The position numbers and the translations under genes were made by a program. Positions 3,747 to 60,409 of a stretch of 64,000 nucleotides of DNA are shown here, piece after piece. The stretch lies in IMG/VR virus record IMGVR_UViG_3300021364_000012, positions 11,909 through 75,908 of that record. One strand, written 5' to 3'. The number at the start of each line of letters is the position of its first letter. The stretch's first letter is position 1. Source of the DNA: a virus. The notes beneath the pieces are model-generated. The model saw only the letters and a program-made list of their open reading frames with translations, was not told where the DNA came from and did not search any database.

Positions 3747-4265
3747 TTGGGGATTGACTTAAATGAGAAATACGAAGAGGTCAAAAAGCTTTTCTACAAA
3801 CATTGTGGGAAAATGTGTTTAGACGCAAAGTGCGACCCTCAAGACGTTCTTCAAGAAGTGTGCAAAGGTATTCTTATCCGAAACAAAGGAACATGCCCCT
3901 TCGATGAAAAGAAGTCTGCTTTCTCAACTTATGTCGTTATGGTGAGCAGATGTGTCACAACAAACTATATAAATAAAAGAAACAGACACTCGCAGAAAGA
4001 AACCACAGGAGTGGAAGACACAATCGAAAAAACAGATTACGCAATCGCACACAGTTGCACTGTAGAAGACTATGACACTATTTTAACAATCAAAGAAGTA
4101 AGAGACCACCTCGCAGGAAATATGAGGGACATTTTCGATGACTTATTACTAGGACACAACGTGTCACACATCTCTAAGAGTCGTGGGATAGACAGTCGAA
4201 AAATTAAAAACTACATAGAAAAAATAAAGAAGGTCTTAATACCACTCGGAGTAGCACCATGCTGA
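3747..4265 (+). CDS. Phage RNA polymerase sigma-70/ECF-like factor (start uncertain; ORF open from 3474)
   Basis: DPQDVLQEV...FDEKKSAFSTYV region-2-like segment and C-terminal HTH-like region 4 (GHNVSHISKSRGID). Confidence 0.65.
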   Translation: MGIDLNEKYEEVKKLFYKHCGKMCLDAKCDPQDVLQEVCKGILIRNKGTCPFDEKKSAFSTYVVMVSRCVTTNYINKRNRHSQKETTGVEDTIEKTDYAIAHSCTVEDYDTILTIKEVRDHLAGNMRDIFDDLLLGHNVSHISKSRGIDSRKIKNYIEKIKKVLIPLGVAPC

Positions 4266-4861
4266 CTTTTATATATTCCACCGTCAACGCAGGCAAAACT
4301 GCTAATCTTCTCATGAGAGCATATTCTTGCTGTGAGAGAAATATCTCCCACTCAATATATGTTCCAGACGTAGCTTCAGCGAGAGACGGTAAAAATCAAA
4401 TCGCATCAAGAATTGGATTCACTAAACAAGCCATCTCGGTGTCAGAAGAAGACAACCTCCTAGAAATAACCGTCAAGAAACTTATTAATGGTGGGAAAGA
4501 CGATGTGATCTTTGTAGATGAAGCACAGTTCTTAACCAAAGAACAGGTTATTCAGCTATCAAACATAGTCTCAGAGCTAGAAATAAAAGTCTATGCGTAT
4601 GGTTTACGCACAGACTTTAGAGGCGAGCCTTTTGAAGGTTCAGTATATCTAATGTCTTGGGCAGACGAGATACAGGAAATATCCACATTCGGAAGTAATG
4701 GAAGCAAAGCCATCTTTAATCAGAAGATAGACAAAAACGGAAACGGAGTCTCTGAAGGAGACTCCGTTGACGCAGGGTTCCACTATATCCCTGTAACTCG
4801 ATCTGAGTTCGTACTACTAAATCGAGCTACGGATGTTAAAGGTGAACTGGATATAGAGTAG
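4259..4861 (+). CDS. tdk: Thymidine kinase
   Basis: YSTVNAGKT P-loop, IFVDEAQFL, YGLRTDFRGEPFEGS. Confidence 0.93.
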   Translation: MLTFIYSTVNAGKTANLLMRAYSCCERNISHSIYVPDVASARDGKNQIASRIGFTKQAISVSEEDNLLEITVKKLINGGKDDVIFVDEAQFLTKEQVIQLSNIVSELEIKVYAYGLRTDFRGEPFEGSVYLMSWADEIQEISTFGSNGSKAIFNQKIDKNGNGVSEGDSVDAGFHYIPVTRSEFVLLNRATDVKGELDIE

Positions 4862-17347: not shown

Positions 17348-17565
17348 GTGATTACGAAAAAATAGACCATCCAGATCATTATCAAGGCGTAAATATGGAA
17401 GCCATTGATGTGATAGAACAGTATAATCTTAACTTCTCATTAGGGTCGGCTCTTAAATATATTTTAAGAGCAGGAAAGAAACCTAATGAGAAAGCATCTG
17501 AAGACCTCAAGAAAGCAGTATGGTATCTCCAAAGGGAGATAAGCAGAAAAGGAGAAAGCAATTGA
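17344..17565 (+). CDS. DUF3310-like protein (T7 gp1.7/SaV-like family)
   Basis: DHPDHY..EAID..LNFSLG.ALKY..RAGKK...EDL.KA.WYL. Confidence 0.8.
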   Translation: MSDYEKIDHPDHYQGVNMEAIDVIEQYNLNFSLGSALKYILRAGKKPNEKASEDLKKAVWYLQREISRKGESN

Positions 17566-18581
17566 ACTACATTGCAGAATACTTATGGATTGACGGGGGG
17601 AACCCAACATCAAGAATAAGGTCTAAGACCAAAGTTTTTGAGACAGACAAAGAATTAAGCTTAGAGGTTTTCCCTGAGTGGTCTTTTGATGGCTCTTCTA
17701 CAGAACAAGCAGTAGGAAATAACTCAGACTGCGTTCTAAGACCTGTGTTCTTTTGTTTCGATCCTACAAGGAAGGGAGTCAACACTGTCATCGTCCTATG
17801 TGAAGTGTACGATGTAGATGGAAACCCACACCCTTCAAACCATCGAGCTAAGTTAAGAGAGACTCTTAACCAAAAGCCTAACCTCGACGCTTGGGTAGGT
17901 TTTGAACAAGAATACACTCTATTTCTTGGATCAAGACCTTTAGGATTTCCTTCAGAAAGAAGATTCCCTCCCGCACAAGGTCCTTATTATTGTGGCGTTG
18001 GTGCAGATGAAGTATCTGGAAGAGAACTTGTAGAAGAGCACCTCAACGCATGTATTTCTGCTGAAATACCAATCACAGGGATCAATGCTGAAGTGATGCC
18101 GGGTCAGTGGGAGTTTCAAATCGGAGGACCTGGAGTAGACCCACTTACAGGTTCAGATTGTCTATGGGTGGCTCGTTGGTTGCTCTATAGACTTGGAGAG
18201 AAATACAATATTTCTGCGACTCTCGAACCTAAGCCCGTGACTGGAGATTGGAACGGTGCAGGTATGCACACAAATTTCTCAACAGAGTCTACAAGAGCAG
18301 AAGGAGGTCTTTCAGTGATAGAGCAAATCATGCACACCATGAAAGAAAGAATCTCTGAACACCTTGCAGAATACGGAGAAGGTTACGAAATACGTCTCAC
18401 CGGCAAGCATGAGACTTGTCGATATGACGAGTTTAAATGGGGAGTGTCAGACAGAACTGCGTCTGTAAGAATCCCCGTGACCACATCCAAAGAAGGAAAA
18501 GGCTACTTTGAAGATAGAAGACCCAACGCCAACGCAGACCCATACAGAGTCGCTAGAGTTATCGTTGAGTCCTCTAAATAA
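17562..18581 (+). CDS. glnII: Glutamine synthetase type II
   Basis: AEYLWIDG, PEWSFDGSSTEQA, GFEQEY, NAEVMPGQWEFQIG, DWNGAGMHTNFST, YFEDRRP; TTG start at 17562 after GGAG, overlapping the previous stop. Confidence 0.93.
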   Translation: MNYIAEYLWIDGGNPTSRIRSKTKVFETDKELSLEVFPEWSFDGSSTEQAVGNNSDCVLRPVFFCFDPTRKGVNTVIVLCEVYDVDGNPHPSNHRAKLRETLNQKPNLDAWVGFEQEYTLFLGSRPLGFPSERRFPPAQGPYYCGVGADEVSGRELVEEHLNACISAEIPITGINAEVMPGQWEFQIGGPGVDPLTGSDCLWVARWLLYRLGEKYNISATLEPKPVTGDWNGAGMHTNFSTESTRAEGGLSVIEQIMHTMKERISEHLAEYGEGYEIRLTGKHETCRYDEFKWGVSDRTASVRIPVTTSKEGKGYFEDRRPNANADPYRVARVIVESSK

Positions 18582-32397: not shown

Positions 32398-35300
32398 TTA
32401 CTTCCTTTTTCCTAATATCCTATTTCTTAAAGAATACTTATTTTCTCTAGGAGCTGTCCTTTGAGAGGACACACCTCGACCACGCATTCTAGGATAAGAA
32501 GACGCAAAACCTTTTCCGCTAATAGAAGTATTATTAGGAGTTCCACTCGCAAAATATTTCTGTTTCCCAAAGTTCCTTGAAGCTACCCACACCATTCTTA
32601 TTAGTGCATCGGACATATCGTCATGCTTACCCTGCACTTGAGGAGCTTCGACTGTAATCACATGCTTACTGTGTACATGTGCTTGTAGCTCAAAAAGCTC
32701 AGAGATATAGGGTGCGTGTCCTTCAACTTCAGGGTTAGGGTTGTCGTATAACGCTAATTTCTCATCCCACATCAAAGACTTGAAGTTCTGATACATATCC
32801 GAAGTCTTATTCTTAGTCATGTGTTCCGACTTCATCTGACCCAAGCCTCTTTTTGAGAGAGCTTGTTCCAAAGGAATACCAGCCCATTGGTCAAATATAC
32901 CCTCAGAAACATAAAACTTCTTAGTCAGTTGCAAAATCCAATCAGCAACATCGTCAAAATCGAGCCTGTCCTTATCAGCGTAATCACCTTCCCCTGCTTT
33001 AATCTGATCTACAAGATCAACCACCACCTTGTTTTCTTCTAAATGACCAATCGCTATAGCGGTTCCGTCGCCTACGAGACCTAAGTCGATACCCATAAAA
33101 TGTGGCTTTCTTGCAGGTGCTCTATTTCTTTGTCTGAGACTAGGGTCTACACACGCTAGGAGGTCTTCTTCTTTCTCTATCCAACCCCTCGTTCTATCCG
33201 TAAACTCTCCACCATACTCCGTAAAGAAAACAGCGGCGTTCTTTAAATAATGCTTCTCAAACTCTTCCGCAGGGACGGTGGGGTTCACCTCCCAAGTAGG
33301 GGCTTGAACACAAAGCATATTTGAAGAAGCCCCTCCACCTTGCATACCTATATTAAATAGCTTGTAGAAGAGTCCCTGTTTGCCCAATGGAGAAGAAATA
33401 AGAATAACCCGACCTTCCACGTCTCCAATGGGCTTTGTTGGGTTTGTAGGGTCTTTCGGAGAATATGCCGAAGTTGAAGGCACTACCGCATTATAGACTT
33501 CTTCAGCTCCCGACTGTCCACTCTCAGTAAAGTGAGCTACCTCGTCAAGTATCACGCAAATATTACCTGCACCACGAAGACCTTTAGCGACACAAGATCG
33601 GAAGGTTACTTTAAGAGTGGCTTTTGCATCTGCGTTCTCAATATACCTCCCGTATTTCTCCACATCGTTTGGTGTTTGAAAACGTGCATAAGACAGTGTG
33701 TTATTTGCTGTGTAAGGACCAAAAAAAGCACAGTTCCGATAGTGACCTGAAACTTCTTGATAAAGAAGACCCGCTTGGTCTTTGTCTGTAGCGACAGAAA
33801 TAATCTGAATATTATTGCTCGCAGGAAGACCATAGTATTTCTGAGGGTCGCCTTTTTTGATCAGCTTGTAAGTCTCATAAGCGGCGATGCAAGCAGAAAT
33901 AGTAGTGTTATGGTTTGTAAAGCAATTCCCCACAAACATAGAGCCTTCAGGCACGTTCAAGTCATAAACATGACACTCTGAATCTTCGACACTTTTAATA
34001 GTGTCGAAGAAATAGTGGGTATCTAAAATATGCTCAAGCTTATCTTTTATTGAGTTAGACAAACGCTCGGAGTCAAGCACCTTCTTTATACGAGGGAAAG
34101 AAAGAGAATCTGAGTTATTTAAAAGTCGAGTCGGTACACCTCTTTCTTTTAAGTACCCACCTAAACCACGAACATAGAAATCATGAGAGCTTCTCAAAGT
34201 GGACTCAAGTTCTTTGAGTACCTTTTTCTTTCTATCTGAAATAAATCCGATCTCCCTACAGAACACACGATAGGACTCTAAACCTTTTACCCGAACACGA
34301 CCTCTAACCTGACCTTCCTCATTTTTTGAATGGGAAAATGAAGAAACGACACCTAAGTTCATAAGAATTATGTGGACTTGTCGTAAAAGCTCCAAAGAGG
34401 CAGAACACAAAGAAATCTCTTTTGATTGCTTTTCAGAGCAAACGTAGCCGTCCGTCTCAAAGAGTCCCCTTAAAAAAGCACAGATAACAGGTTTGGGGCT
34501 TCTAAGAATTACTTCTGGAACACACTTCTGTTGTAGCGGTGTTTTAATTCCCCAACCAATCTGATGTAAGAAATCCCTGTGCTTCTTACTGTGACACACG
34601 ACACGATACGCATTTGCTTCCAATACAGGATAACAAGAAACCTTGCCAAAGAGGTGTACCATCTTAAGCACTAATATATCTTTAAAGTCTTTCTCCCCAA
34701 CAGTAACCACAACATCTTTTTCTGAAGCCCATGTCCCATCTCCCACTAGGACACCAAGCATCTCCCCCCAATCTTCATTCAAATATTCTGGAAGGTTCTT
34801 CACACCTTCAACGATATGCTCTGAGAAAGAAACATAATCTTCTGCAAATATGCCCCTCTTGTAATTAAGACAAGCAACATCCCCCTCAACCACATCCTCT
34901 AAATACTTCCAAGAAATATTAAAGTCAGAGTCTAGCACCTTTATACGATGATTTGGAGTTCCTTCTATTTCAAAACCCGAACGTGTTGTTATTCTTTTAG
35001 TTTCCTTGATGCCTCCATTATAGAAAAAGGCCGCCCTAGACTTTCTCCCACCCTCTTGTAAGACTTCCGTAGAAATAGGTTGATACTCAGGAGCACCCAA
35101 AGACGCATCACCTAGTGTGTCTATTCTTACTAGACCCCTACTCGTAGGTATAAGAGTGTCTCCCCGAACACACTTTCCCGAGCGTCTCCCTATTGAGAGA
35201 ATCATCTCTCTTCTTTGCTGTCCCGGAATCACTTCTCCGATGTTACAGCGTCCTTCATCAAACAGTTTCTTCAAATAAGTCTTTTCAGTGTGTTCTTCCC

Positions 35301-35511
35301 AATCTTCCCTCCTCCAATCACTTATTTTGAAGGTGTAAGTGTCGTCTAGCTCTAAGCCGTAGTGAGCTTTAAGAATGATTTTCTGTATTGGAAATAAAGT
35401 CATCTTCAAGCCCCAAGGGGCTTCTACAAACTCTATAATGTCTGCATCTCTCTCAGACTGCTTGCCCATTCGAGCCGAAGCACCAATGGCTAAAGAAGAA
35501 AGACTCATCAC
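32398..35511 (-). CDS. terL: Terminase large subunit (intein-containing)
   Basis: Walker A GRRSGK|T, Walker B VILDEVAH, ISSP motif III, nuclease MGIDLG, FDQW, HDDMSDA. Confidence 0.92.
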   Translation of the reverse strand: MMSLSSLAIGASARMGKQSERDADIIEFVEAPWGLKMTLFPIQKIILKAHYGLELDDTYTFKISDWRREDWEEHTEKTYLKKLFDEGRCNIGEVIPGQQRREMILSIGRRSGKCVRGDTLIPTSRGLVRIDTLGDASLGAPEYQPISTEVLQEGGRKSRAAFFYNGGIKETKRITTRSGFEIEGTPNHRIKVLDSDFNISWKYLEDVVEGDVACLNYKRGIFAEDYVSFSEHIVEGVKNLPEYLNEDWGEMLGVLVGDGTWASEKDVVVTVGEKDFKDILVLKMVHLFGKVSCYPVLEANAYRVVCHSKKHRDFLHQIGWGIKTPLQQKCVPEVILRSPKPVICAFLRGLFETDGYVCSEKQSKEISLCSASLELLRQVHIILMNLGVVSSFSHSKNEEGQVRGRVRVKGLESYRVFCREIGFISDRKKKVLKELESTLRSSHDFYVRGLGGYLKERGVPTRLLNNSDSLSFPRIKKVLDSERLSNSIKDKLEHILDTHYFFDTIKSVEDSECHVYDLNVPEGSMFVGNCFTNHNTTISACIAAYETYKLIKKGDPQKYYGLPASNNIQIISVATDKDQAGLLYQEVSGHYRNCAFFGPYTANNTLSYARFQTPNDVEKYGRYIENADAKATLKVTFRSCVAKGLRGAGNICVILDEVAHFTESGQSGAEEVYNAVVPSTSAYSPKDPTNPTKPIGDVEGRVILISSPLGKQGLFYKLFNIGMQGGGASSNMLCVQAPTWEVNPTVPAEEFEKHYLKNAAVFFTEYGGEFTDRTRGWIEKEEDLLACVDPSLRQRNRAPARKPHFMGIDLGLVGDGTAIAIGHLEENKVVVDLVDQIKAGEGDYADKDRLDFDDVADWILQLTKKFYVSEGIFDQWAGIPLEQALSKRGLGQMKSEHMTKNKTSDMYQNFKSLMWDEKLALYDNPNPEVEGHAPYISELFELQAHVHSKHVITVEAPQVQGKHDDMSDALIRMVWVASRNFGKQKYFASGTPNNTSISGKGFASSYPRMRGRGVSSQRTAPRENKYSLRNRILGKRK
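33907..35172 (-). mobile_element. Intein with LAGLIDADG homing endonuclease in terL (422 aa)
   Basis: N-terminal CVRGDT, block B GTPNH, LGVLVGDG and FLRGLFETDG, C-terminal VYDLNV...NHN followed by Thr+1. Confidence 0.93.
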
Positions 35512-40850: not shown

Positions 40851-41306
40851 CTATAAAAGCATTATCGAAACCAAAACCCCATTTGACTCCAAGTAAGAAA
40901 TACCATCCGTGTGGCTGTTAGGCACACTAGAAATAATAACTCTTGTAATACCAGCATGGTGGATTGCCTTCGCACACATCAAACAAGGACTACAAGAAAC
41001 AATCATCCACTTACCTAAAGTAGCTTGCCCTCTCCTTGAGCTGTTAAGAATTGCGTTCATTTCTGCATGGTGGCAACCCACATCATTCTGAGTGCCACTC
41101 ACTACCGAAATGCTATTTCTAAGACACACTTCTCCCCCACAAAGAGAGTCTTTAGAACCTCTAGGTGTCCCATTATATCCATCACTTAAAACCACACCAT
41201 CCCGTGGGTCGATGATGATTGCACCTACAGACCTCCGAGGACAAGGTGAGGCTTCTGAAAGCAAAGCACACTGCTTTATTCTTATTTTTAGTAGTTTGTC
41301 TTTCAC
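40851..41306 (-). CDS. dCMP deaminase
   Basis: SPCPRRSVGA, GYNGTPRG, HAEMNAI, SPCLMCAK; probable GTG start at 41306 after GGGGAG. Confidence 0.9.
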   Translation of the reverse strand: MKDKLLKIRIKQCALLSEASPCPRRSVGAIIIDPRDGVVLSDGYNGTPRGSKDSLCGGEVCLRNSISVVSGTQNDVGCHHAEMNAILNSSRRGQATLGKWMIVSCSPCLMCAKAIHHAGITRVIISSVPNSHTDGISYLESNGVLVSIMLL

Positions 41307-41391
41307 GTCTCCCCAAACTTTCTGGTCAATTAAAGACCGAAAAAGTATATAATACAGACAAGCAACCGACAAAAATATAAAGGAGACTAAA

Positions 41392-42162: not shown

Positions 42163-43452
42163 ATGAAAGCAGTCTTACTAGACACTTCTATTCTTATCCA
42201 TGACCCTGAAAGTGTGAACGCATATGAGGATAAAAAAGTCCTCATACCTATCTTTGTCGTCATGGAACTCGACCTGCTTAAAGATGCCCCCAAAAGAGAA
42301 AAGGGACATGTGTCCCATCTCGCAAGAAAAGCATCTTCTATAATACTGTCGAAACTTGAAGAAGAAGATGAGAGTCTTGAGATCGTGTCTCTTGGAGACG
42401 AAATAAATCTGAAAGACCTAGACCAAGCAAGCAAAATCAGATATGTGGACTTGCTTATCTTACGCACAGCAATGGAGCAAAACGAGAAATACGAAGACTT
42501 CACCGTTGTAAGTAAGGACGTAAACTTAAGGATCATAAGCGAGAGTGTTGGACTAAAGTCAGAAGACTACAATATTGATAGACCCGATAATCTGAATGTT
42601 GGGATGATTGAGGTAGTCCCTGACGATAGATTAGAGAAGATGATCCCCTCTTCTTATTGGCAAGGTGCGATAAGATACGATGACTCTATGGCTTACATAG
42701 GAGAACTGTACGAAAACAGATATGTCCACTTCGTCAGCCATACGACTGAAAAGACACACCTCTTTATCTACAAAGACGGCTCATTCAGTAACGTCAACAA
42801 AAAACTCAAAGTCGAAAGAGCAAAGCCAAGAAATATCGAACAAGTAGCAAGTCTCGACCTTTTATTGGATCCAGAAATACAGCTAATAGCCCTTCTTGGT
42901 AAAGCAGGAACAGGTAAGACATTCTTAGCTCTAGCAGCTGCTCTTGAGCAACAAGCAAACTACAGTAAAATCTTACTGAGCAAGCCTGTTGTAGATGTAG
43001 GTAGAGGCATCGGCTTCCTTCCCGGAAGCCTAGACGAGAAACTAGAGCCTTGGATGCAGTCTTTCTTTGACAACCTCGATCAAATCAACCCTTATTGGGA
43101 CGTGAGAAAATCTGAGGATGATCGTGGGGCGTTGATGGATAAGTGTAATATAGAGATACAACCCATCCACTCTATCCGAGGAAGATCACTTAAGAATGCG
43201 TTTATGATCATAGATGAAGCACAAAACCTCACTAAGCATGAAATAAAAAGCATCATCACAAGAGCGGCTGAAGGAACCAAAGTTGTTCTTCTAGGAGACC
43301 CGTACCAAATCGACCACCCCTACTTAGACTCGAAGTCAAATGGTCTTGTCCATGTCATAGAGAGAATGAAAGACCAACCTATTTTCGGTTGTATGGAGCT
43401 ACATAAGTCTGAAAGATCAACACTATCAGACATTACGGCAGACCTACTTTAA
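42163..43452 (+). CDS. phoH: PhoH2-type PIN-PhoH protein
   Basis: PIN: VLLDTSIL, ELD, SKDVNLR; PhoH: GKAGTGKT, GFLPG, RGRSL, IDEAQN, GDPYQID. Confidence 0.92.
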   Translation: MKAVLLDTSILIHDPESVNAYEDKKVLIPIFVVMELDLLKDAPKREKGHVSHLARKASSIILSKLEEEDESLEIVSLGDEINLKDLDQASKIRYVDLLILRTAMEQNEKYEDFTVVSKDVNLRIISESVGLKSEDYNIDRPDNLNVGMIEVVPDDRLEKMIPSSYWQGAIRYDDSMAYIGELYENRYVHFVSHTTEKTHLFIYKDGSFSNVNKKLKVERAKPRNIEQVASLDLLLDPEIQLIALLGKAGTGKTFLALAAALEQQANYSKILLSKPVVDVGRGIGFLPGSLDEKLEPWMQSFFDNLDQINPYWDVRKSEDDRGALMDKCNIEIQPIHSIRGRSLKNAFMIIDEAQNLTKHEIKSIITRAAEGTKVVLLGDPYQIDHPYLDSKSNGLVHVIERMKDQPIFGCMELHKSERSTLSDITADLL

Positions 43453-44202: not shown

Positions 44203-45486
44203 ATGTTACAAAGATACCAAGATCAAAGAATTAGTAAAATATTCAGCCAGAGAAAAAGAGTAGCAATCTTCACTCAAATAGAAGAAATAGTCTGCCTCTT
44301 TTATAGTACTAAAGAAGAAATGCCCGAGGAGGTCTATCTTTCACTGAGAAATATAGACCACGAACTCATCACAGAGAGAATGCCTGAACTAGAGCGACAA
44401 ACAAAGCACGAAACAGTTGCCTATCTAAGAGCAATCTCTGAACAGATTGGAGAAGAAAACTCAAAGTACTTACACAAAGGACTAACTAGCTCTGATATTT
44501 TAGACACATGTCTCGCTCTCCAAATGAAAGAGAGCTTAGAACACTTGTTAGATTTAGTACAATCGTTCTTAGACACACTGAGGCACAAAGCTTGTGTCCA
44601 CAAGCACACCAAAATGATAGGAAGATCACACGGAAGAGCTGGAGAAATAACTACCTTCGGACTCGTACTACTTTCTTTCTATACTGAATGGGCTAGAAAC
44701 AAAGAACGAATTGAAATGGCATTGTCTGAAATAAGCTTCGGGTGTATTTCTGGACCTATGGGGAACTTCAGCTTAACTTCCCCAAAGCTCGAAGAAGAAA
44801 TATGTAAGCATCTAGGACTCAAACATGAACCTGTTTCTAGTCAAGTAATCCCAAGAGACAGACACGCATTTTTGTCCTGTGTCCTTTCTTTAGTTGGTGC
44901 TTCCCTAGAAAGAATTTCTACCGAAATTAGAAATCTCAGCCAATCTGGAATAGATGAAATATCAGAGAAATTCTCAGACAAGCAAGCAGGAAGCTCTGCG
45001 ATGCCTCACAAAGTGAATCCTATATTGTCTGAAAATGTAACAGGATTGGGCAGATTACTAAAAGGATATGTCTCTCCAAGTTTAGATAACGTATCTCTTT
45101 GGTATCAAAGAGACATGAGCCACTCTTCGGTAGAAAGAGTAACCATAGAAGACTCTCTCCATCTAGCGTGTTTTGGGATAAAAAGAATGGAGAAAGTCAT
45201 TAAAAACATGACGGTTTATTCTGAGAACATGCGAAGAAATATAAACCGAGAGAAAGGTTCATTTCTTTCCCACAGCATACTCTATTATCTAATGGATCGT
45301 GGGTATGGTAGGAAAGAAGCCTATGAGATCACTCAAGAGCTTACGAAAGAAGAAAACAACTTGATTGAGACTCTGAACAAGCTAAAAGACACATACTTCA
45401 CTAGCGAAGAAATTGAGAACATAGTCAGCGAAGAAAAGTACATCTCTAATGTAGACTACATCTTCAAAAGAACACTAGGAGGCTGA
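44203..45486 (+). CDS. purB: Adenylosuccinate lyase
   Basis: TKHE, HKGLTSSD, GRSHG, GSSAMPHKVNP signature, RDMSHSSVER. Confidence 0.95.
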   Translation: MLQRYQDQRISKIFSQRKRVAIFTQIEEIVCLFYSTKEEMPEEVYLSLRNIDHELITERMPELERQTKHETVAYLRAISEQIGEENSKYLHKGLTSSDILDTCLALQMKESLEHLLDLVQSFLDTLRHKACVHKHTKMIGRSHGRAGEITTFGLVLLSFYTEWARNKERIEMALSEISFGCISGPMGNFSLTSPKLEEEICKHLGLKHEPVSSQVIPRDRHAFLSCVLSLVGASLERISTEIRNLSQSGIDEISEKFSDKQAGSSAMPHKVNPILSENVTGLGRLLKGYVSPSLDNVSLWYQRDMSHSSVERVTIEDSLHLACFGIKRMEKVIKNMTVYSENMRRNINREKGSFLSHSILYYLMDRGYGRKEAYEITQELTKEENNLIETLNKLKDTYFTSEEIENIVSEEKYISNVDYIFKRTLGG

Positions 45487-45488
45487 AA

Positions 45489-46544
45489 ATGCGTATGGAA
45501 AACGAGTTGAAGCTAGACTTCAAAGATGTCCTTTTCAAACCTAAGAGGTCTACTCTTACTTCAAGAAGAGAAGTCAATCTCGATAGGTCATTTAAGTTGA
45601 AATGGTCTAATAGGACTTGGAAAGGGATACCCATAGTAGCTTCAAACATGGATACAGTAGCCACTTTTGAAGCTGGGAAAGTTCTCACTAATCTTAATAT
45701 GATGATCTGCTTGCACAAGCACTACACCGAAGCAGAGTATGTTAAGATATATGAATGGGTCTGCGAAAGAGGAGGAGATTTCTCGCAACATTGGGCTTAT
45801 TCTATGGGAATATCAGACGCAGAGTTTGATCGCCTAAGAAGCATCCAATCTCTAACAGAAAACGCAATCTCCACCATCTGCATTGATGTGGCGAACGGAT
45901 ACACTGAGAGATTTATCAATTTTGTCTCTAAAGTGAGAAGAGAGTACCCTGACAATATAATTATCGCAGGAAATGTCGTAACCGCTGAAATAACAGAACA
46001 GTTAATCTTAGCAGGTGCAGACATTGTTAAGGTTGGAATCGGGTCAGGCTCCGCCTGTACCACTAGAATACAAGCAGGTGTGGGATTTCCCCAACTTTCA
46101 GCCGTCATAGAGTGTGCAGATGCCGCACATGGTCTTGGAGGACGTATCATGTCCGATGGGGGGTGTACTTGTGCAGGAGATGTGTCTAAAGCCTTTGGAG
46201 GTGGAGCAGATTTCGTAATGCTTGGAGGTATGCTCGCAGGGCATACAGAGAACCTCAGATTAAACGAAGAGGGCAAAGCAGTCTTCTATGGTATGTCGTC
46301 TAGTACAGCTATGGAGAAATATCACGGAGGCGTGAGCAGTTACAGGTCTTCTGAAGGACGCACAGTGACACTCAACCCAAGAGGACCTTTAAAAGACACA
46401 ATGCTAGAAATACTCGGCGGTGTTCGATCTACATGTACCTATATTGGAGCAAAAGAACTTAGAGAGCTGAGTAAATGCACAACATTCATTCGAGTACTTC
46501 AGCAATACAACCCCGTATATGAAGCACAGACAAAGGAGAAATAA
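45489..46544 (+). CDS. guaC: GMP reductase (E. coli GuaC type)
   Basis: LKLDFKDVLFKPKRSTL.SR, SNMDTV, IDVANGY, GIGSGSACTTR, FYGMSS, YRSSEG, GGVRSTCTY. Confidence 0.95.
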   Translation: MRMENELKLDFKDVLFKPKRSTLTSRREVNLDRSFKLKWSNRTWKGIPIVASNMDTVATFEAGKVLTNLNMMICLHKHYTEAEYVKIYEWVCERGGDFSQHWAYSMGISDAEFDRLRSIQSLTENAISTICIDVANGYTERFINFVSKVRREYPDNIIIAGNVVTAEITEQLILAGADIVKVGIGSGSACTTRIQAGVGFPQLSAVIECADAAHGLGGRIMSDGGCTCAGDVSKAFGGGADFVMLGGMLAGHTENLRLNEEGKAVFYGMSSSTAMEKYHGGVSSYRSSEGRTVTLNPRGPLKDTMLEILGGVRSTCTYIGAKELRELSKCTTFIRVLQQYNPVYEAQTKEK

Positions 46545-46545
46545 G

Positions 46546-47721
46546 ATGAGCACCGTTGCAGTTATCGGAACACAGTGGGGTGACGAAGGTAAAGGTAAGA
46601 TCGTAGACACTATTTCTGAAAGCTCGAACTACTGTGTAAGATTCCAAGGCGGTTCAAACGCAGGACACACAATCATAGCCAACAATAAAACATTCAAATT
46701 AAGATTGACCCCAAGCGGAGTGATACAAGGAGCAATCGGAATCGTAGGGTCAGGTTGTGTTGTAAACTTAGATGTCCTTGAACAAGAAATAACGAGCCTT
46801 GAACTCCCAAAAGAAAAGCTTTTGTTAGACAACAAGAGCACTTTAATCCTCCCCCTCTATTTAAGAATAGACTCGGAGAGAGAAGAGAAGAGAAATAAAC
46901 CTATCGGCACAACAAAGAACGGTATTGGAGTTGCCTACGAACAAAAAGCATCTCGAAGTGCTTTTAGAGCAGAAGACCTAAAAAACCCTAGTGTTTGGGT
47001 AGACAAAGCAAGAGGTGTCGTAACTAGATATTTCTCAGACAAAGAAACAATAAACAGAGAGGTTGACGAAATCATAACACACCTCTCACACCACGCATCT
47101 TTCTTCAAAGAGAGAATTAAAGACACAGGGGAAATCCTCCACCAAGCATTTCTTAGGGAGGAAAGAGTAGTCATAGAAGGTGCTCAAGGCACTCTCTTAG
47201 ACATAACTCACGGCACATATCCTTTCGTCACAAGCTCCACAACTATTTCTGGAGGAATAAGTGCTGGAATAGGATGTGCCCTACCAAGAAACTCTGAAAT
47301 TATCGGAGTAACAAAAGCCTATTGTACTAGAGTTGGTGCAGGTGAGTTCCCTTCTGAAGAAGAGGGAGAGATTGAAAAACTGCTACAAACAAAAGGTAAA
47401 GAAATAGGTGTGGTGACAGGAAGAAGAAGAAGATGTGGCTGGCTTAATCTTGACGAGCTAAAGTACGCCCACAGGCTTAATGGGTTCACACAAATCGCTA
47501 TTACAAAAGTAGATGTATTAGACGACTTCGAGCAAGTCAAAGTCTTAGTAAATGGCGAATTAGTTGCTTTTGAGGGTTGGGAAAACAGCTCAAACGCTAC
47601 AAGCTATAGCGACTTACACCCCAACTTGAAGAAATACCTCTCATATATCGAAGGTCAAGTGGGAGTGAAAATAGGAATAGTCTCAACAGGACCAAGAAGA
47701 GAAGACACTATTTTCGTCTAA
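46546..47721 (+). CDS. purA: Adenylosuccinate synthetase
   Basis: QWGDEGKGK (canonical Asp), GGSNAGHT, IGTTKNGIG, EGAQG, GTYPFVTSS, TRVGAGEFP, TGRRRRCGW. Confidence 0.95.
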   Translation: MSTVAVIGTQWGDEGKGKIVDTISESSNYCVRFQGGSNAGHTIIANNKTFKLRLTPSGVIQGAIGIVGSGCVVNLDVLEQEITSLELPKEKLLLDNKSTLILPLYLRIDSEREEKRNKPIGTTKNGIGVAYEQKASRSAFRAEDLKNPSVWVDKARGVVTRYFSDKETINREVDEIITHLSHHASFFKERIKDTGEILHQAFLREERVVIEGAQGTLLDITHGTYPFVTSSTTISGGISAGIGCALPRNSEIIGVTKAYCTRVGAGEFPSEEEGEIEKLLQTKGKEIGVVTGRRRRCGWLNLDELKYAHRLNGFTQIAITKVDVLDDFEQVKVLVNGELVAFEGWENSSNATSYSDLHPNLKKYLSYIEGQVGVKIGIVSTGPRREDTIFV

Positions 47722-48257: not shown

Positions 48258-49001
48258 TTAATCTAAGGGTGGAATCTTCCCATGCTTCACAAGATTCGCA
48301 TGAGCAAGAGGCCACACTTTTTCAATCTGCCTAGAAATCTCCCGAGCTAAAATCTTAATCTCCCATTGTGCGTCCTCATGGTCACGCTTGGCGATGAAGC
48401 TGTTAGCCCAATTATGGAGCGAACCCGTACACCAATAGGTGGCATAAAGGTTCTGAGGTAAAATCATCCTAGCTTGCTCTCTCGCAACACCTAGCTCCAC
48501 CATTTGATCAAAAAGACGTACAGAATCTTTAACATGATTCTTAACCGCAGAAACAGCATCTAGTCTTAGGAACTTCGGATATTCATATGGGTCGTACTCA
48601 ATCGTAGGATTGAAAGTCTCGTCAAGGCTCGCTTGACGATTCTTAACGTCTTGCTTTCTCATCTCAGAAGGAAGATAAAACTCCAACTTCTCAGAAGTAT
48701 ATCTACGAGAAATCTCGTTAAAAGAAAAAGTGCGATGTCTCATGTGTTGTCGAGCAACAAACATCGGAACCTTTATCCAAAAAGTAATAACATTATGCTC
48801 GGTAGTTGAAGTATGACCGCTTCGGATAAGGAAGTTTGAAAGTCGCTCTTCACGCTCACCCATCTCAGTGCTGACTTGATCGAGACTAGCCCGAGCCGCA
48901 TTGACGATGGTTAGGTCATCGCCCATATGCTGAATGAGGGCAACCCCTCCAATCCCATCACCATAAATGGGAACCATATTTTCTCTGAAATCTTTTGCCA
49001 T
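48258..49001 (-). CDS. thyX: Flavin-dependent thymidylate synthase
   Basis: VNAAR, GHTSTTEH, RQHMRHRTFSFNEISRRY, REQARMILP, AQWEI. Confidence 0.95.
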   Translation of the reverse strand: MAKDFRENMVPIYGDGIGGVALIQHMGDDLTIVNAARASLDQVSTEMGEREERLSNFLIRSGHTSTTEHNVITFWIKVPMFVARQHMRHRTFSFNEISRRYTSEKLEFYLPSEMRKQDVKNRQASLDETFNPTIEYDPYEYPKFLRLDAVSAVKNHVKDSVRLFDQMVELGVAREQARMILPQNLYATYWCTGSLHNWANSFIAKRDHEDAQWEIKILAREISRQIEKVWPLAHANLVKHGKIPPLD

Positions 49002-49094: not shown

Positions 49095-49616
49095 TTAAAC
49101 TTCAGAGTCTCCTTCTTTTTCTTCTCCGTCCCACTCTATTTCCACCTTCTCTTCTTTATCTTTATTATCTTTTGGGTTGATCCATTGACTGACCACACCT
49201 TTAAGCTGAACTTGATCTTCTGTCCTAGTCTTAATGACAGTCTCCCCCTTAAACACGGAGAGCTTGTCTATCACAGCAGACTGAAGCTCAAAGATTTGCT
49301 CTCTAAGCAGTTGCATTTGTATCTGTGCATCCCTCAAACGGGCTATTAGAGCTTCACGATCTCCATTGGCGTTAGCCAACTTGTCTTTAAGCTCTTCTAC
49401 TTCTGAAGGGTCTCTACCCGAAGCTATCGCAAGCATCGAAGAAATACTACCCGTAAGCATACCTATTATTCCAATAAGAATGTCTCGGTTCTCCTCCACA
49501 ATCTTTGTGGTAGATAAAAAATAAATCAACTCACAGATAGCCAACATAAAGACGACACTAGCCCACCACCCTCTCTTGGCTTTTTCTGACTGTGTGAACT
49601 GTTTGTTTGTGCTCAT
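49095..49616 (-). CDS. 2-TM membrane protein with coiled coil, coupled to the cyclase gene
   Basis: Two hydrophobic helices then heptad repeat; ATGA overlap with upstream cyclase stop. Confidence 0.7.
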   Translation of the reverse strand: MSTNKQFTQSEKAKRGWWASVVFMLAICELIYFLSTTKIVEENRDILIGIIGMLTGSISSMLAIASGRDPSEVEELKDKLANANGDREALIARLRDAQIQMQLLREQIFELQSAVIDKLSVFKGETVIKTRTEDQVQLKGVVSQWINPKDNKDKEEKVEIEWDGEEKEGDSEV

Positions 49617-50473
49617 TTCCTACCTCTCTTCTTAGGTTTCTTTTCCTCTTTTTGATTAAAAATATATTCTATGAAAGCGTCATACTCAGGCATGTAATAA
49701 GGAAGACCAATCCAAGTCCTCACCATTGGTCTCAAAGACATTTGAAATAAAAAATAGAGAATAAAAACAAGCTCAACTATGGCAAGTCTCCAAATAAACC
49801 ACCAAAACCAATCCAACAACTTACGATCTCTAGCTCTTTTCTTTATATACTTCGGACCTCCAAGTCTTTTGACTTTCTCTGAACCTGGAGGAGGCTGTAG
49901 CGATTCGATGGTTTGCCCTACCGCATATATTTCTTGAGGTGAAGAAACGCCCTTAAATTTATACATGCCTACACAGACATATCTTGTGTTTTTTGGTGTG
50001 AACTGATTTGTTCTATTTCTTATAACTTGAAAAGCCTCTTTAGTCAGAAGAACCTGACCTGCTTGACATAAAGACATAGTTCGAGCGGCGATATTCTTAG
50101 AAAGACCCTCCAACTCAACTCTCTTAGCTCCCACACCAACATAAAGATCATCTTGCTGTACTTCTATGACTTTCCCCCAATGAACTCCAATCCTTGTGTT
50201 CAGCTTAACTTTTTTAGGGATTGTTTCTTGGTACGCCAAAGCGAAATTTACTGCGTCTATTACTCTTTCAAAAGAAAGAAGAAAACCGTCAGACCTGTCT
50301 ATTTCTCTACCATCATACTTATATACAAGAGAGCGAGCGAGTCGATCATGGACTTGAAACCACTGTGCGGCAACCTTTGCACCTGCTCTTTGAACAAATG
50401 CGGTAGAGCCAATTATGTCTAAAAGAACAATCGCTAAGTATCGCTCTTTCATTACTATTCCATGATGTGACAT
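49613..50473 (-). CDS. Class III nucleotidyl (adenylate/guanylate) cyclase with C-terminal TM anchor
   Basis: LLDIIGST, GREIDRSDGFLL, RIGVHWG, GLSKNIAAR, GQVLLT, YKFKGV; hydrophobic WFWWFIWRLAIVELVFILYFLF. Confidence 0.85.
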   Translation of the reverse strand: MSHHGIVMKERYLAIVLLDIIGSTAFVQRAGAKVAAQWFQVHDRLARSLVYKYDGREIDRSDGFLLSFERVIDAVNFALAYQETIPKKVKLNTRIGVHWGKVIEVQQDDLYVGVGAKRVELEGLSKNIAARTMSLCQAGQVLLTKEAFQVIRNRTNQFTPKNTRYVCVGMYKFKGVSSPQEIYAVGQTIESLQPPPGSEKVKRLGGPKYIKKRARDRKLLDWFWWFIWRLAIVELVFILYFLFQMSLRPMVRTWIGLPYYMPEYDAFIEYIFNQKEEKKPKKRGRK

Positions 50474-51144: not shown

Positions 51145-52089
51145 ATGTTGTCGTGGGACACAAAAGAGATATTTCTAAATAAGGTCAAATCAAAAGGCGG
51201 TTTTGCTTGTCACCACGCACATTTCGACAAGGCATATCTCATCAATGAAGAAGCTCTGGAAATATCCCAAAGCTCCTTACAAGAAAAATGGAAACTCTAT
51301 CGGAAGTATAAGTCTGAGTACACAGAAGAAGACTTAGAAAGAAGAATGACCCTGTGCATAGAGAATATGATCTCTCAAGGTGCTAAATACTGTAAGACTT
51401 TTGTGGATGCAGATTCTATTGTGGGACTATTACCCGTAAAAGTAATGTCTTCTTTGAAAGAGAAATACAAAGAACAGATAAAGCTAGAAATCGCAATACA
51501 GCCCTTAGAGGGAGTCCTTAACCCTAAGACTCAAAAAACATTTATTGATGCGTGTGAGATTGCAGATGTTATTGGCGGTCTCCCCGACAGAGACGAAAAC
51601 CCAAGACAACACGTCGATTTCTTAATGGGACTTTCTAAAGAAATGAACAAGCCCATTGACATCCATGTAGGTCAAAACAACATCCCTTCAGAACAAGAAA
51701 CAGAGATGGTAGTGGATCGGATAACCTACCACCGATTAGAAGGAAGAGTTAATTTAGTACATGCGATTTCTCTTTCCTGTCAGCCTAAAAGAGACAGAGA
51801 AAGAATCATTTCTAAATTAAGAGACACAAATACAAGCGTTATTGTCTGTCCCTCAGCGGCTCTTAGTATGAAACAACAATCTGAGAAATATGCTCCAATA
51901 CACAACTCAATAGCTCCTGTAATGGAGCTATTGGAGCAGGATGTGAATGTACTACTCGGAGTAGATAACATCCACGATCTCTTCATGCCTCTAGTAGATG
52001 GAGACCTCTACTTCGAGAGTCGCCTACTCATGGAAGCAATAAGATACTATGACTTAGATAAAATAGCAGAAATAGTATCTAAGTCTTAA
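51145..52089 (+). CDS. Amidohydrolase-superfamily deaminase (cytosine deaminase CodA-like)
   Basis: HAHFDKA (HxH), DIHVG, HAISL, CPSA, GVDNIHD.FMP. Confidence 0.75.
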   Translation: MLSWDTKEIFLNKVKSKGGFACHHAHFDKAYLINEEALEISQSSLQEKWKLYRKYKSEYTEEDLERRMTLCIENMISQGAKYCKTFVDADSIVGLLPVKVMSSLKEKYKEQIKLEIAIQPLEGVLNPKTQKTFIDACEIADVIGGLPDRDENPRQHVDFLMGLSKEMNKPIDIHVGQNNIPSEQETEMVVDRITYHRLEGRVNLVHAISLSCQPKRDRERIISKLRDTNTSVIVCPSAALSMKQQSEKYAPIHNSIAPVMELLEQDVNVLLGVDNIHDLFMPLVDGDLYFESRLLMEAIRYYDLDKIAEIVSKS

Positions 52090-58459: not shown

Positions 58460-60382
58460 TTAAACCTCACAGCCTCCACCACCACAGGCTATTTCTCTGC
58501 TACCCTCACCCATATCTTCAAGCTCAAAGTCTGAAAGAAGATCAAAGTTGATTGGAACATGACTCTCCATCGCCTTCTCGTACTCTTCCTCAGAAATCTC
58601 TACATATGGAGCCAATCTGTATTTCCCACCGTCATAAGGTAAGAAACTCAGACCTACAACCTCATCAAAGTGATCCCACAGCCACTGACCAACCTTATCC
58701 CAATCTCCGTCCTTGACGTAAATCGTGGCAGATTGATTGTGTCCTTTCTCTGAAATCCAAGACTTCATGATGCCAAGGTATCTCTCCATCTGCTGAATAG
58801 AGTCTTCATCATCTCTAGTCATGCACCCTTCAGGCGACTTAACTGGAAATCTAGCCACCCATGTGTCCACTTCGCTGTCGGGTCTGTCTTCTTGACCATT
58901 CTCCTTATGCAAAGGAATTCCTTGGTGCTGAAGAACCTTACAAAGAGGGTCGTTTGCTGAAACACGAACATGGCGGAAATAGTACTTACTATAACGAGGG
59001 TGAAACCCACTCGCACAGTCTACAAACTGAGAGCTATTTCCACTAGGCTTCCCACAAGTAATCGCCGCAGGATAGTTAATTCCGAGTAACTCTGAAGCTT
59101 CTTTAGCTGTCTCTAAAGCTACTTGGTTGAATTTCTTCATCGCAACCCAATCCGTAGAAAGCTTAGGGTTGTCGCATTGGCCTGTAATGTCTACTCCAAG
59201 TAGACGATCTTCTTGGCACAGGTTCTTCCATCCTTCTCTAAGATAGTTAAAGTTAGTCTTAGAAGCCTGTACGCAACCAATCCATGTAGCGAGTCTTACT
59301 TTCTCGCACATGCTTTCTACGGTATCTTCTGCTCTCATCACACAAGCAGAGAGATTACAGAACTGACCTGCACCGCCCTCTCCTGTCCAAGGGTCTTGTG
59401 AGGGAAGATAACGAAGTCGTATCTCATGGCATGGGTTGCTTCTCACCATCCCTTTCGGACTGCCACAGTATCTCCACCAATTGTCAATAGAGAAACCACG
59501 CTCACCGCTACCGCTCTCTGCAAGTGCTTTCCACTCTGCCCAAAAAACTTCCTCTGAAGGTCTCTCAGGATAAAACGCACTATTGTTTGCCATATATCTA
59601 ATCGTAGGGAAAGAACCTAGCTTCCAATTCTTAGCATGACGTAAATCACTATCATCTGGATCAGAGAAAGAAATCATCGCCGCTCTGCGAACACCACCGA
59701 CTACAACTACTTCTGCGATCTGACACATGAGATCATGACACTCTAGGGTTGTAAGCTGACGACCTCTCGCTTGATTAAGTATTTCTTCTGCGAAAGAAAC
59801 AGCTTTGAGCAGAGGTTCAGGGCCACTACTTCTACCGCCCTTAGTCTCAAGTACTGCCCCTTTCGGGCGAATATTGGAAACATCAAGCTCAACAGAGCCT
59901 CCTCGCCACATATGGACGAAAGCAGTGTCGAGAGCCGAAGCCCAACCTAAAGTAGAATCTTCAACTGTAATAAGGAGAGGAGTCTCCTCATCATCTCTTT
60001 CGGAAAAAACCGCTGGAAGATTAGACACAAACTTGCTCTCTACTGAGAAGCCAACACCTGTCCCTTGCATAAGAATATATAAAGCCTCTGAGAAAGCCCT
60101 AACACAATCAATAGGGAGAAAAGAGCAGTTATAAATGCTGACATTCTCTCTCTCTGCATTCGCACCCGCAGACCATAAAGCTCTCATAGAAGGCATGATG
60201 GACTTAGAAAAAATCGCATCTCTTATTTCCTTCTGTAAGTCTGAAGGGATTTTTGTAGGTAAGAACGCCCAAGACATAAAGCGATCTACAGTCTCACCCC
60301 AAGTCTCTCTTCTTTTTTCTTCTCTCAACCAACGAGAATATGTCCGATAATACACAAATGAGGACAAATCAGTATTTTCCAT
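58460..60382 (-). CDS. nrdJ: Class II (adenosylcobalamin-dependent) ribonucleotide reductase
   Basis: RTYSR, PSMRALW, YNCSF, VGGVRRAA, SNPCHEI, QFCNLS, CGKPSGN, C-terminal ACGGGGCE. Confidence 0.92.
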   Translation of the reverse strand: MENTDLSSFVYYRTYSRWLREEKRRETWGETVDRFMSWAFLPTKIPSDLQKEIRDAIFSKSIMPSMRALWSAGANAERENVSIYNCSFLPIDCVRAFSEALYILMQGTGVGFSVESKFVSNLPAVFSERDDEETPLLITVEDSTLGWASALDTAFVHMWRGGSVELDVSNIRPKGAVLETKGGRSSGPEPLLKAVSFAEEILNQARGRQLTTLECHDLMCQIAEVVVVGGVRRAAMISFSDPDDSDLRHAKNWKLGSFPTIRYMANNSAFYPERPSEEVFWAEWKALAESGSGERGFSIDNWWRYCGSPKGMVRSNPCHEIRLRYLPSQDPWTGEGGAGQFCNLSACVMRAEDTVESMCEKVRLATWIGCVQASKTNFNYLREGWKNLCQEDRLLGVDITGQCDNPKLSTDWVAMKKFNQVALETAKEASELLGINYPAAITCGKPSGNSSQFVDCASGFHPRYSKYYFRHVRVSANDPLCKVLQHQGIPLHKENGQEDRPDSEVDTWVARFPVKSPEGCMTRDDEDSIQQMERYLGIMKSWISEKGHNQSATIYVKDGDWDKVGQWLWDHFDEVVGLSFLPYDGGKYRLAPYVEISEEEYEKAMESHVPINFDLLSDFELEDMGEGSREIACGGGGCEV

Positions 60383-60409
60383 TTTCCATTTCCTTTGTTC
60401 ACTCACACA

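Follow-up and report, generated by a model that had tools for sequence, protein, structure and literature searches.

The 64,000-nucleotide stretch of virus DNA analysed here (the window) spans bases 11909-75908 of the IMG/VR virus record IMGVR_UViG_3300021364_000012, which is linear and 75,908 bp long. It carries three purine nucleotide genes, purB, guaC and purA, arranged head to tail on the + strand in a region that is otherwise largely minus-strand. Sequence comparisons suggest that this operon is a phage-encoded purine interconversion branch, a shunt leading from guanosine monophosphate (GMP) through inosine monophosphate (IMP) to adenosine monophosphate (AMP), a reading to which we give a probability of about 0.62. 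The three genes are as follows.

44203..45486, + strand: purB, adenylosuccinate lyase, 427 aa (TIGR00928, 380 bits, cut-off 326)
45489..46544, + strand: guaC, type-1 GMP reductase, 351 aa (NF003470, 524 bits, cut-off 397)
46546..47721, + strand: purA, compact adenylosuccinate synthetase, 391 aa (NF002223, 416 bits, cut-off 402)

A preliminary description of this DNA had noticed the tight + strand operon, and its coordinates and spacing are confirmed: 2 bp separate purB from guaC (stop 45486, ATG 45489) and 1 bp separates guaC from purA (stop 46544, ATG 46546). Shine-Dalgarno sequences, GGAGG and AGGAG, lie inside the upstream genes, with AGGAG preceding the purA ATG. A mechanically called open reading frame (ORF) for purA begins at 46519, but the family models align from the ATG at 46546. 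On the flanks, the upstream gene is divergent, while the downstream gene is convergent and overlaps the purA stop. Scans for sigma-70 promoters and terminators around the operon revealed nothing beyond chance.

Profile scores and residue comparisons identify the three products as bona fide PurB, GuaC and PurA with all catalytic residues intact; the motifs that had been called intact are kept against structures 1C3U and 2A7R and against E. coli PurA. PurB matches the T. maritima adenylosuccinate lyase structure 1C3U with 329 bits and retains the equivalents of His68 and His141, the signature loop GSSAMPHKxNP (here GSSAMPHKVNP) and the fumarate-lyase signature SSxMPxKxN. GuaC aligns end to end with human GMPR2 (2A7R, 422 bits) and retains, in human numbering, the Cys186/Thr188 loop (GSGSACTTR) and Glu289 (SSEG), three residues that we take to be catalytic in the human enzyme. 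Its score against a further GMP reductase model, TIGR01305, is slightly under the cut-off (476 bits, cut-off 492). We also tried this protein as an IMP dehydrogenase (IMPDH, GuaB): TIGR01302 gives 192 bits, far from the required 481.5, and the 351-aa chain has no CBS insert. By these measures GuaC is a type-1 GMP reductase and not an IMP dehydrogenase, as first proposed.

PurA is, on its residues, a compact but true PurA. Compared with the E. coli enzyme it keeps GDEGKGK with Asp13, Gln34, Asn38, His41, Thr128/129, Arg143, Gln224, Arg303/305, the KxD motif and Ser414, and it has two surface deletions, near E. coli residues 165-185 and 350-372. The P-loop GDEGKGK/Asp13, His41, the ligands of IMP and aspartate, the KxD motif that confers specificity for guanosine triphosphate (GTP), and Ser414 are invariant in 23 members of its clade; the TIGR00184 score is slightly under the cut-off (380 bits, cut-off 396). 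Many phage PurA homologues are PurZ-like and PurB is the second enzyme of the 2-aminoadenine route, and a PurZ-like PurA could be imagined to work with PurB in making 2-aminoadenine for phage DNA. Of all the readings we weighed this is the least probable, because the protein scores 118 bits against the PurZ model NF038379 (cut-off 300) while the PurA model passes, matches PurZ structures with 65 bits and PurA structures with 270-306 bits, and keeps the Asp13 P-loop together with the full set of IMP, aspartate and GTP residues. In addition, GuaC would take away the very guanine nucleotide that feeds PurZ. The PurZ-PurB pathway of S-2L/phiVC8-type phages does resemble the operon in pairing a phage PurA-family enzyme with PurB, but the substrate of PurZ is deoxyguanosine monophosphate (dGMP), whereas the window PurA is expected to use IMP and to yield a normal adenine nucleotide.

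Together, the three enzymes would very likely convert GMP to IMP, adenylosuccinate and finally AMP, and this predicted joint chemistry, already put forward in the preliminary description, is the only coherent reading of the trio. GuaC would reduce and deaminate GMP to IMP, using NADPH (reduced nicotinamide adenine dinucleotide phosphate) and releasing NH3; PurA would then condense IMP with aspartate into adenylosuccinate at the expense of GTP, and PurB would split off fumarate to give AMP. During infection, the trio would divert ribonucleotides from the guanylate into the adenylate pool, and host kinases and the phage ribonucleotide reductase (RNR) would then yield deoxyadenosine triphosphate (dATP). 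This would supply a 41% GC genome (about 29% A and 21% G) from a G-rich source, be it the turnover of ribosomal RNA (rRNA), a GC-richer host, or both. Having PurA and PurB of its own would probably free the flux from host enzyme levels and feedback control. Because all three enzymes act on ribonucleotides, the flux would start from RNA-derived or newly made GMP and reach DNA only via the reductase. Thus, the G-to-A flux from recycled nucleotides that was originally proposed stands for RNA-derived or newly made GMP, and not for a direct use of host dGMP. Its purpose can reasonably be inferred to be feeding an AT-rich genome and/or raising the adenylate supply.

What kind of virus carries this operon? 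The record is about 24% complete according to CheckV, and its GC content, which the preliminary description had left to be computed, is 41.4% overall and even across the window at 40-45%. It encodes capsid and portal proteins, a giant tail-sheath-like protein, a RecD2-like helicase and Pol III delta-like proteins, and it contains inteins. An uncultured 485-kb phage has a portal 71% identical to that of the record, to which the portals of Tunturiibacter phage Tunturi_5 and Bacillus phage G show distant kinship. The record is a fragment of an aquatic, uncultured jumbo phage. A scan of the window for transfer RNA genes found none, and a megablast of the operon against cultured phages returned no match.

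Scanning IMG/VR with an alignment of the compact PurA retrieved large viral contigs related to the window phage. They are listed here together with the window phage itself and with L070, a further carrier of the trio.

G000 (window phage): 75.9 kb, 24% complete; purB-guaC-purA
G004: 312,136 bp with terminal repeats, 100% complete, GC 38.4%; amidohydrolase-purB-purA-guaC in a row
G003: 375,691 bp, 100% complete, GC 44.9%; trio dispersed, with guaC near 65 kb, purA at 104 kb and purB at 130 kb
L070: 18 kb, GC 29%; purB-purA-guaC, in which stop and start codons overlap, next to genes for ThyX and a nucleoside 2-deoxyribosyltransferase
G002: 227 kb, 73% complete; guaC and purA 3.5 kb apart
G005 (177 kb, 57% complete) and G006 (35 kb, 11% complete): purA kept, guaC only as a remnant of 45 residues

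G003 and G004 are genuinely related to the window phage: they have in common with it 59-67 of the record's 126 ORFs, with 97% identity in the capsid and 83-85% in the portal. L070, a jumbo-phage fragment, is otherwise unlike it. The order of the trio varies (B-C-A, B-A-C or dispersed) while the co-occurrence of its members persists. In G005, what is left of guaC encodes 45-58 C-terminal residues (L154, 9704-9877), about 540 bp downstream of an intact purA. A collection of 5.8 billion proteins yielded about 55 cluster representatives each for PurA and PurB, 45-76% identical to the query and on contigs of up to 376 kb. The two lists agree in several of their largest contig sizes (247,547; 360,751; 105,297; 31,869; 5,686), which suggests that both genes lie on common contigs; the 247,547-bp contig carries identical PurA and PurB. 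A single-protein pattern scan of IMG/VR with PurB gave no match, and a metagenome scan with the PurA alignment was dominated by cellular PurA (37-44% identity) and added no new member to the clade.

The preliminary description had also reported no de novo purine genes and no guaA or guaB in the window, and this extends to the whole record and to both complete relatives. In fact, no GMP synthase (guaA), second IMPDH-family gene, PurC, PurH, PurM/L or adenosine/AMP deaminase was found in G003, in G004 or in the 75.9-kb record, which represents about 24% of its genome. With PurC, PurH and PurM absent, PurB must serve the AMP branch, and we rejected a de novo role for it. Likewise, the absence of guaA/guaB and of AMP or adenosine deaminase leaves no phage route back to GMP, and a purine nucleotide cycle was rejected as well. 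In G003 and G004, GMP-to-AMP conversion thus forms a self-contained module, with the trio present and the opposing guaB/guaA branch absent.

All compact PurA proteins, including those of the window, L070 and G002-G005, fall into one clade of 27 rows with 100/100 support in a phylogenetic tree, apart from E. coli and other cellular PurA and likewise from another set of short viral PurA, of marine origin. The GuaC proteins of the window, G004 and L070 also form a clade (100/99 support), in a tree whose backbone is unresolved and in which the remaining viral GuaC are split into a large GuaC-only clade, a Xanthomonas/Stenotrophomonas phage clade, and Cr30 apart on a very long branch. These separate groups suggest that large phages captured GuaC repeatedly. 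The operon itself recurs at 95-98% identity, with no indels, in wetland and marine metagenomes of other studies; 32 of the 40 best-supported variant sites fall at codon position 3 and 30 are synonymous, a pattern that fits purifying selection. These observations bear on a more trivial explanation, that the genes are passengers without a phage role, acquired by recent host-gene capture or brought in by bacterial contamination of the viral bin. All three do belong to ordinary cellular housekeeping families, and several "phage" database matches to PurA and GuaC are clearly bacterial contigs. However, the trio lies between phage genes on one contig of uniform GC, its closest relatives are on viral contigs of 200-376 kb, the identity of PurA to cellular proteins does not exceed about 45% and the protein sits within a viral clade, and the genes are conserved in complete relatives under purifying selection. 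We therefore regard the passenger explanation as effectively refuted and give it a very low probability.

The guaC genes of two relatives are interrupted. In G003, guaC is a fractured gene, made of an N-half that ends in a Hint N-part, a free-standing ORF for a NUMOD3 and Vsr-like (DUF559) endonuclease, and a C-half; in G002, a contiguous mini-intein occupies the same site, beside the catalytic Cys.

L226 (G003:60000-72000), 4805-5671, 5691-6668 and 6658-7287: fractured guaC locus of G003
L228 (G002:178000-194000), 5937-7421: guaC of G002 with a contiguous mini-intein

The layout of the G003 locus is the same as that of the IMPDH-1/-2 split-intein loci of Dassa et al. 2009 (PMC2677866). This likeness of layout makes it probable that the widely used split intein of the IMPDH-1 type has a jumbo-phage GMP reductase as its extein, and not an IMP dehydrogenase.

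GuaC is far more widespread than the trio. By itself, it was found in at least 599 IMG/VR viral stretches (55-65% identity, mean locus GC 38%). PurA was sought on 36 GuaC-bearing viral contigs of 41-278 kb and in seven cultured complete GuaC phages, and none was found. The solitary GMP reductases of Xanthomonas phages XacN1 and Xoo-sp13, Stenotrophomonas phages RAS14/CM1 and Caulobacter phage Cr30 are type-1 GuaC, 41-45% identical to the window GuaC. Their carriers are also large phages that are AT-richer than their hosts, but they have no PurA and no purA or purB beside guaC, and their GuaC belong to other clades. Thus, the trio is an elaboration in one phage lineage, and phages with GuaC usually lean on the PurA and PurB of the host.

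If the operon converts G into A, does its distribution follow base composition? In 40- or 60-kb samples, the GC content of cultured GuaC phages is 51.7% for XacN1, 44.1% for RAS14, 41.4% for Xoo-sp13, 39.0% for Cr30, 33.9% for Mel-JY01, 32.9% for TMA and 29.3% for phage G. We take host GC to be about 64-69% for Xanthomonas, Stenotrophomonas, Caulobacter and Thermus, about 38% for B. megaterium and about 42% for Microcystis. On these assumed values, each of the seven phages has a lower GC content than its host, and for five the difference is at least 13 points. A GC-rich host for the window phage itself, as the preliminary description supposed, is a possibility to which these seven phages lend indirect support. 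Yet such a host may not be needed: bacterial rRNA is G-rich, so G-to-A conversion could also benefit a 41% GC phage whose host is not GC-rich. With a G excess coming from rRNA, the preliminary description was too strict in making the idea depend on a host of higher GC than the phage.

Several observations weigh against the idea that the operon acts as a GMP-to-AMP shunt rebalancing the purine pool. First, the seven-phage GC comparison agrees with the GC-rich-host idea but is small and has no control for a general bias, phages being somewhat AT-richer than their hosts as a rule. Second, the many GuaC carriers without PurA show that the trio is not required for GuaC's role, and the purA kept in G005 and G006 beside a guaC remnant shows that PurA is valuable without a phage GuaC. 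Third, with about 24% of the window genome at hand, guaA or guaB could be encoded in the remaining part. Fourth, when genome collections were scanned with GuaC, Gamma- and Betaproteobacteria, Flavobacteriia and Desulfuromonadales all matched at about 60% identity, from which no donor or host can be read. Finally, RNA matching purA amounts to two exact 151-nt contigs in one metatranscriptome that could be DNA carry-over, and we did not use it as a sign of expression.

The decay of guaC next to an intact purA and its linked amidohydrolase in G005 and G006 raises another possibility, which is that the same chemistry pays off as energy. More AMP, adenosine diphosphate (ADP) and adenosine triphosphate (ATP) would help a 300-kb phage in packaging, replication and translation, whatever the GC difference. 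The co-occurrence of PurA and PurB on many long contigs points the same way, as does the lack of any sign of deoxynucleotide specificity in the three genes. On the other hand, the guanylate-draining GuaC is the most widespread of the three in phages and sits in AT-rich genomes, and the operon is placed among genes for deoxynucleotide supply (deoxycytidine monophosphate (dCMP) deaminase, ThyX, RNR). We consider energy as the chief benefit possible though doubtful; the two benefits, energy and DNA composition, are compatible. A further possibility is that the trio manipulates the host or counters its defences, either by lowering GMP/GTP, the alarmone (p)ppGpp or GTP-derived signals, or by rebuilding adenine nucleotides after ATP/dATP has been destroyed or deaminated. 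PurA would indeed consume GTP while GuaC drains GMP, and PurA with PurB would remake AMP from the IMP left by defences that deaminate adenine nucleotides. But neither in the window nor in its relatives is the trio linked to a pyrophosphatase for inosine triphosphate or its deoxy form (ITP/dITP), to an anti-defence gene or to a defence context, and the trio is conserved amid differing neighbourhoods, as expected of a metabolic module. A role in counter-defence therefore seems improbable.

The preliminary description had viewed the GMP-to-AMP shunt as the core of a wider G/C-to-A/T nucleotide converter, completed by a pyrimidine arm, an RNR and a glutamine synthetase that would recapture ammonia. 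All these genes are present in the window:

40851..41372, - strand: dCMP/cytidine-family deaminase, the pyrimidine C-to-U arm (PF00383, 76 bits)
48258..49001, - strand: ThyX, flavin-dependent thymidylate synthase (TIGR02170, 155 bits; PF02511, 162 bits)
4259..4861, + strand: thymidine kinase, Tdk (PF00265, 100 bits; NF003300, 169 bits, under the cut-off of 195)
58460..60406, - strand: class II RTPR-like RNR, putative downstream step from ATP to dATP (phrog_367, 450 bits; TIGR02505, 219 bits, below cut-off)
17520..18581, + strand: GlnII-type glutamine synthetase (NF041605, 461 bits, cut-off 500)

The dCMP-type deaminase, ThyX (78-80% identical) and Tdk have homologues in G003 and G004, where they are scattered. 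For the glutamine synthetase, a homologue exists in G003 but G004 lacks one. As for the RTPR-like RNR, it has no orthologue in the relatives, which encode another type, Ribonuc_red_lgC-type, at the syntenic place beside holA-like genes (G003 86657-88999, G004 240932-243289); both of these proteins contain about 290 inserted residues that may represent an intein. With GlnII absent from G004, the RNR type replaced and the genes scattered, neither glutamine synthetase nor RNR is conserved along with the trio, so a single integrated system with ammonia recapture is speculation. In relatives, conserved linkage is limited to the purine trio and an amidohydrolase, and the other nucleotide genes are scattered.

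This amidohydrolase had been counted as a CodA-like deaminase belonging to the C-to-T arm:

51145..52089, + strand: CodA-like amidohydrolase, possible fourth member of the module (NF005365, 365 bits, cut-off 340)

The residues and the gene neighbourhood do not bear out that assignment. A canonical cytosine deaminase CodA was rejected, as NF005759 gives 96 bits (cut-off 403) and NF006685 gives 68 bits (cut-off 483), and the catalytic Glu217 of the HxxE motif is replaced. The protein belongs to the uncharacterised NCBIfam family NF005365 and keeps the metal ligands, but the residues corresponding to CodA Glu217, Gln156 and Asp314 are Gln, Leu and Asn, invariant across the family. The motif H-V-G-Q-N-N, with HxxQ in place of the deaminase HxxE, is invariant in 16 NF005365 members, among them forms from some bacteria that are fused to an MGS-like (nucleotide-binding) domain. 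In G004 (285402-286358) the gene overlaps the start of purB; in G005 (L154, 6729-7655) and G006 it lies about 350 bp from purA. Its distance to purA is 3.4 kb in the window and 6.4 kb in G003. By neighbourhood, the amidohydrolase thus groups with purA and purB and not with the pyrimidine genes, and it may be part of the purine module. More tentatively, this clade of aquatic jumbo phages might carry out a self-sufficient purine rebalancing that matches the A:G supply to the genome, with the amidohydrolase as an undescribed fourth enzyme; at present we find this rather unlikely.

A few other genes deserve mention. In L070, the nucleoside 2-deoxyribosyltransferase (1148-1618) lies between ThyX and the purB-purA-guaC cluster and could exchange the bases of deoxynucleosides. 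Between the dCMP deaminase and the trio, the window encodes a PhoH2-type protein with PIN and PhoH domains (42163-43452, + strand), of an RNA helicase/RNase family, and its adjacency to the dCMP deaminase is preserved in G003; such a protein could supply RNA-derived nucleotides. A nucleotidyl cyclase-like protein (49613-50473, - strand; PF00211, 29 bits) is encoded 1.9 kb downstream of purA, and its homologues in G003 and G004 are 71-76% identical. Finally, a 1037-aa protein (32398-35511, - strand) contains an intein with a LAGLIDADG endonuclease domain; the G004 homologue is equal in length, while the G003 ORF is longer.

How does the operon compare with known systems? The cellular GuaC-PurA-PurB branch of E. 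coli has the same enzyme families, catalytic residues and predicted reactions, and the phage GuaC is 57-61% identical to proteobacterial and flavobacterial GuaC. But the phage genes form one operon while E. coli guaC, purA and purB are unlinked; the phage PurA has 391 aa, two deletions and a virus-only clade as compared to the 432 aa of E. coli PurA; and, unlike in the cellular branch, the counter-branch guaB/guaA is absent from the complete phage relatives. Phages are well known to remodel pyrimidine pools (dCMP deaminase, thymidylate synthases), and cyanophages carry de novo purine genes. The dCMP deaminase and thymidylate synthase of T4 are an example of pool balancing, in which a nucleotide from the G/C side is deaminated to feed the A/T-side pool for an AT-rich genome. 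The window shares this logic, and it too encodes a dCMP deaminase together with ThyX and Tdk. However, T4 has no purine equivalent, and its enzymes act on deoxynucleotides whereas the window trio acts on ribonucleotides, upstream of RNR.

In our literature search, we found no description of a phage-encoded guaC, purA and purB set, nor of a complete virus-encoded route from guanine to adenine, in line with the preliminary description, which knew of no account of the full set as one phage system. The same search found no paper that assigns a role to the solitary phage GMP reductases of XacN1, Xoo-sp13, RAS14/CM1 and Cr30. One paper lists a GMP reductase as found only in a deep-water pelagimyophage group and offers no interpretation (PMC7029224).

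If the GMP-to-AMP route works as predicted, it would account for the adenine supply of large AT-rich phages. It would also explain why big phages have captured GMP reductase repeatedly, and why some lineages keep private copies of PurA and PurB. Culturable phages already carry the GuaC step of this route, namely Cr30 on Caulobacter and XacN1 on Xanthomonas.

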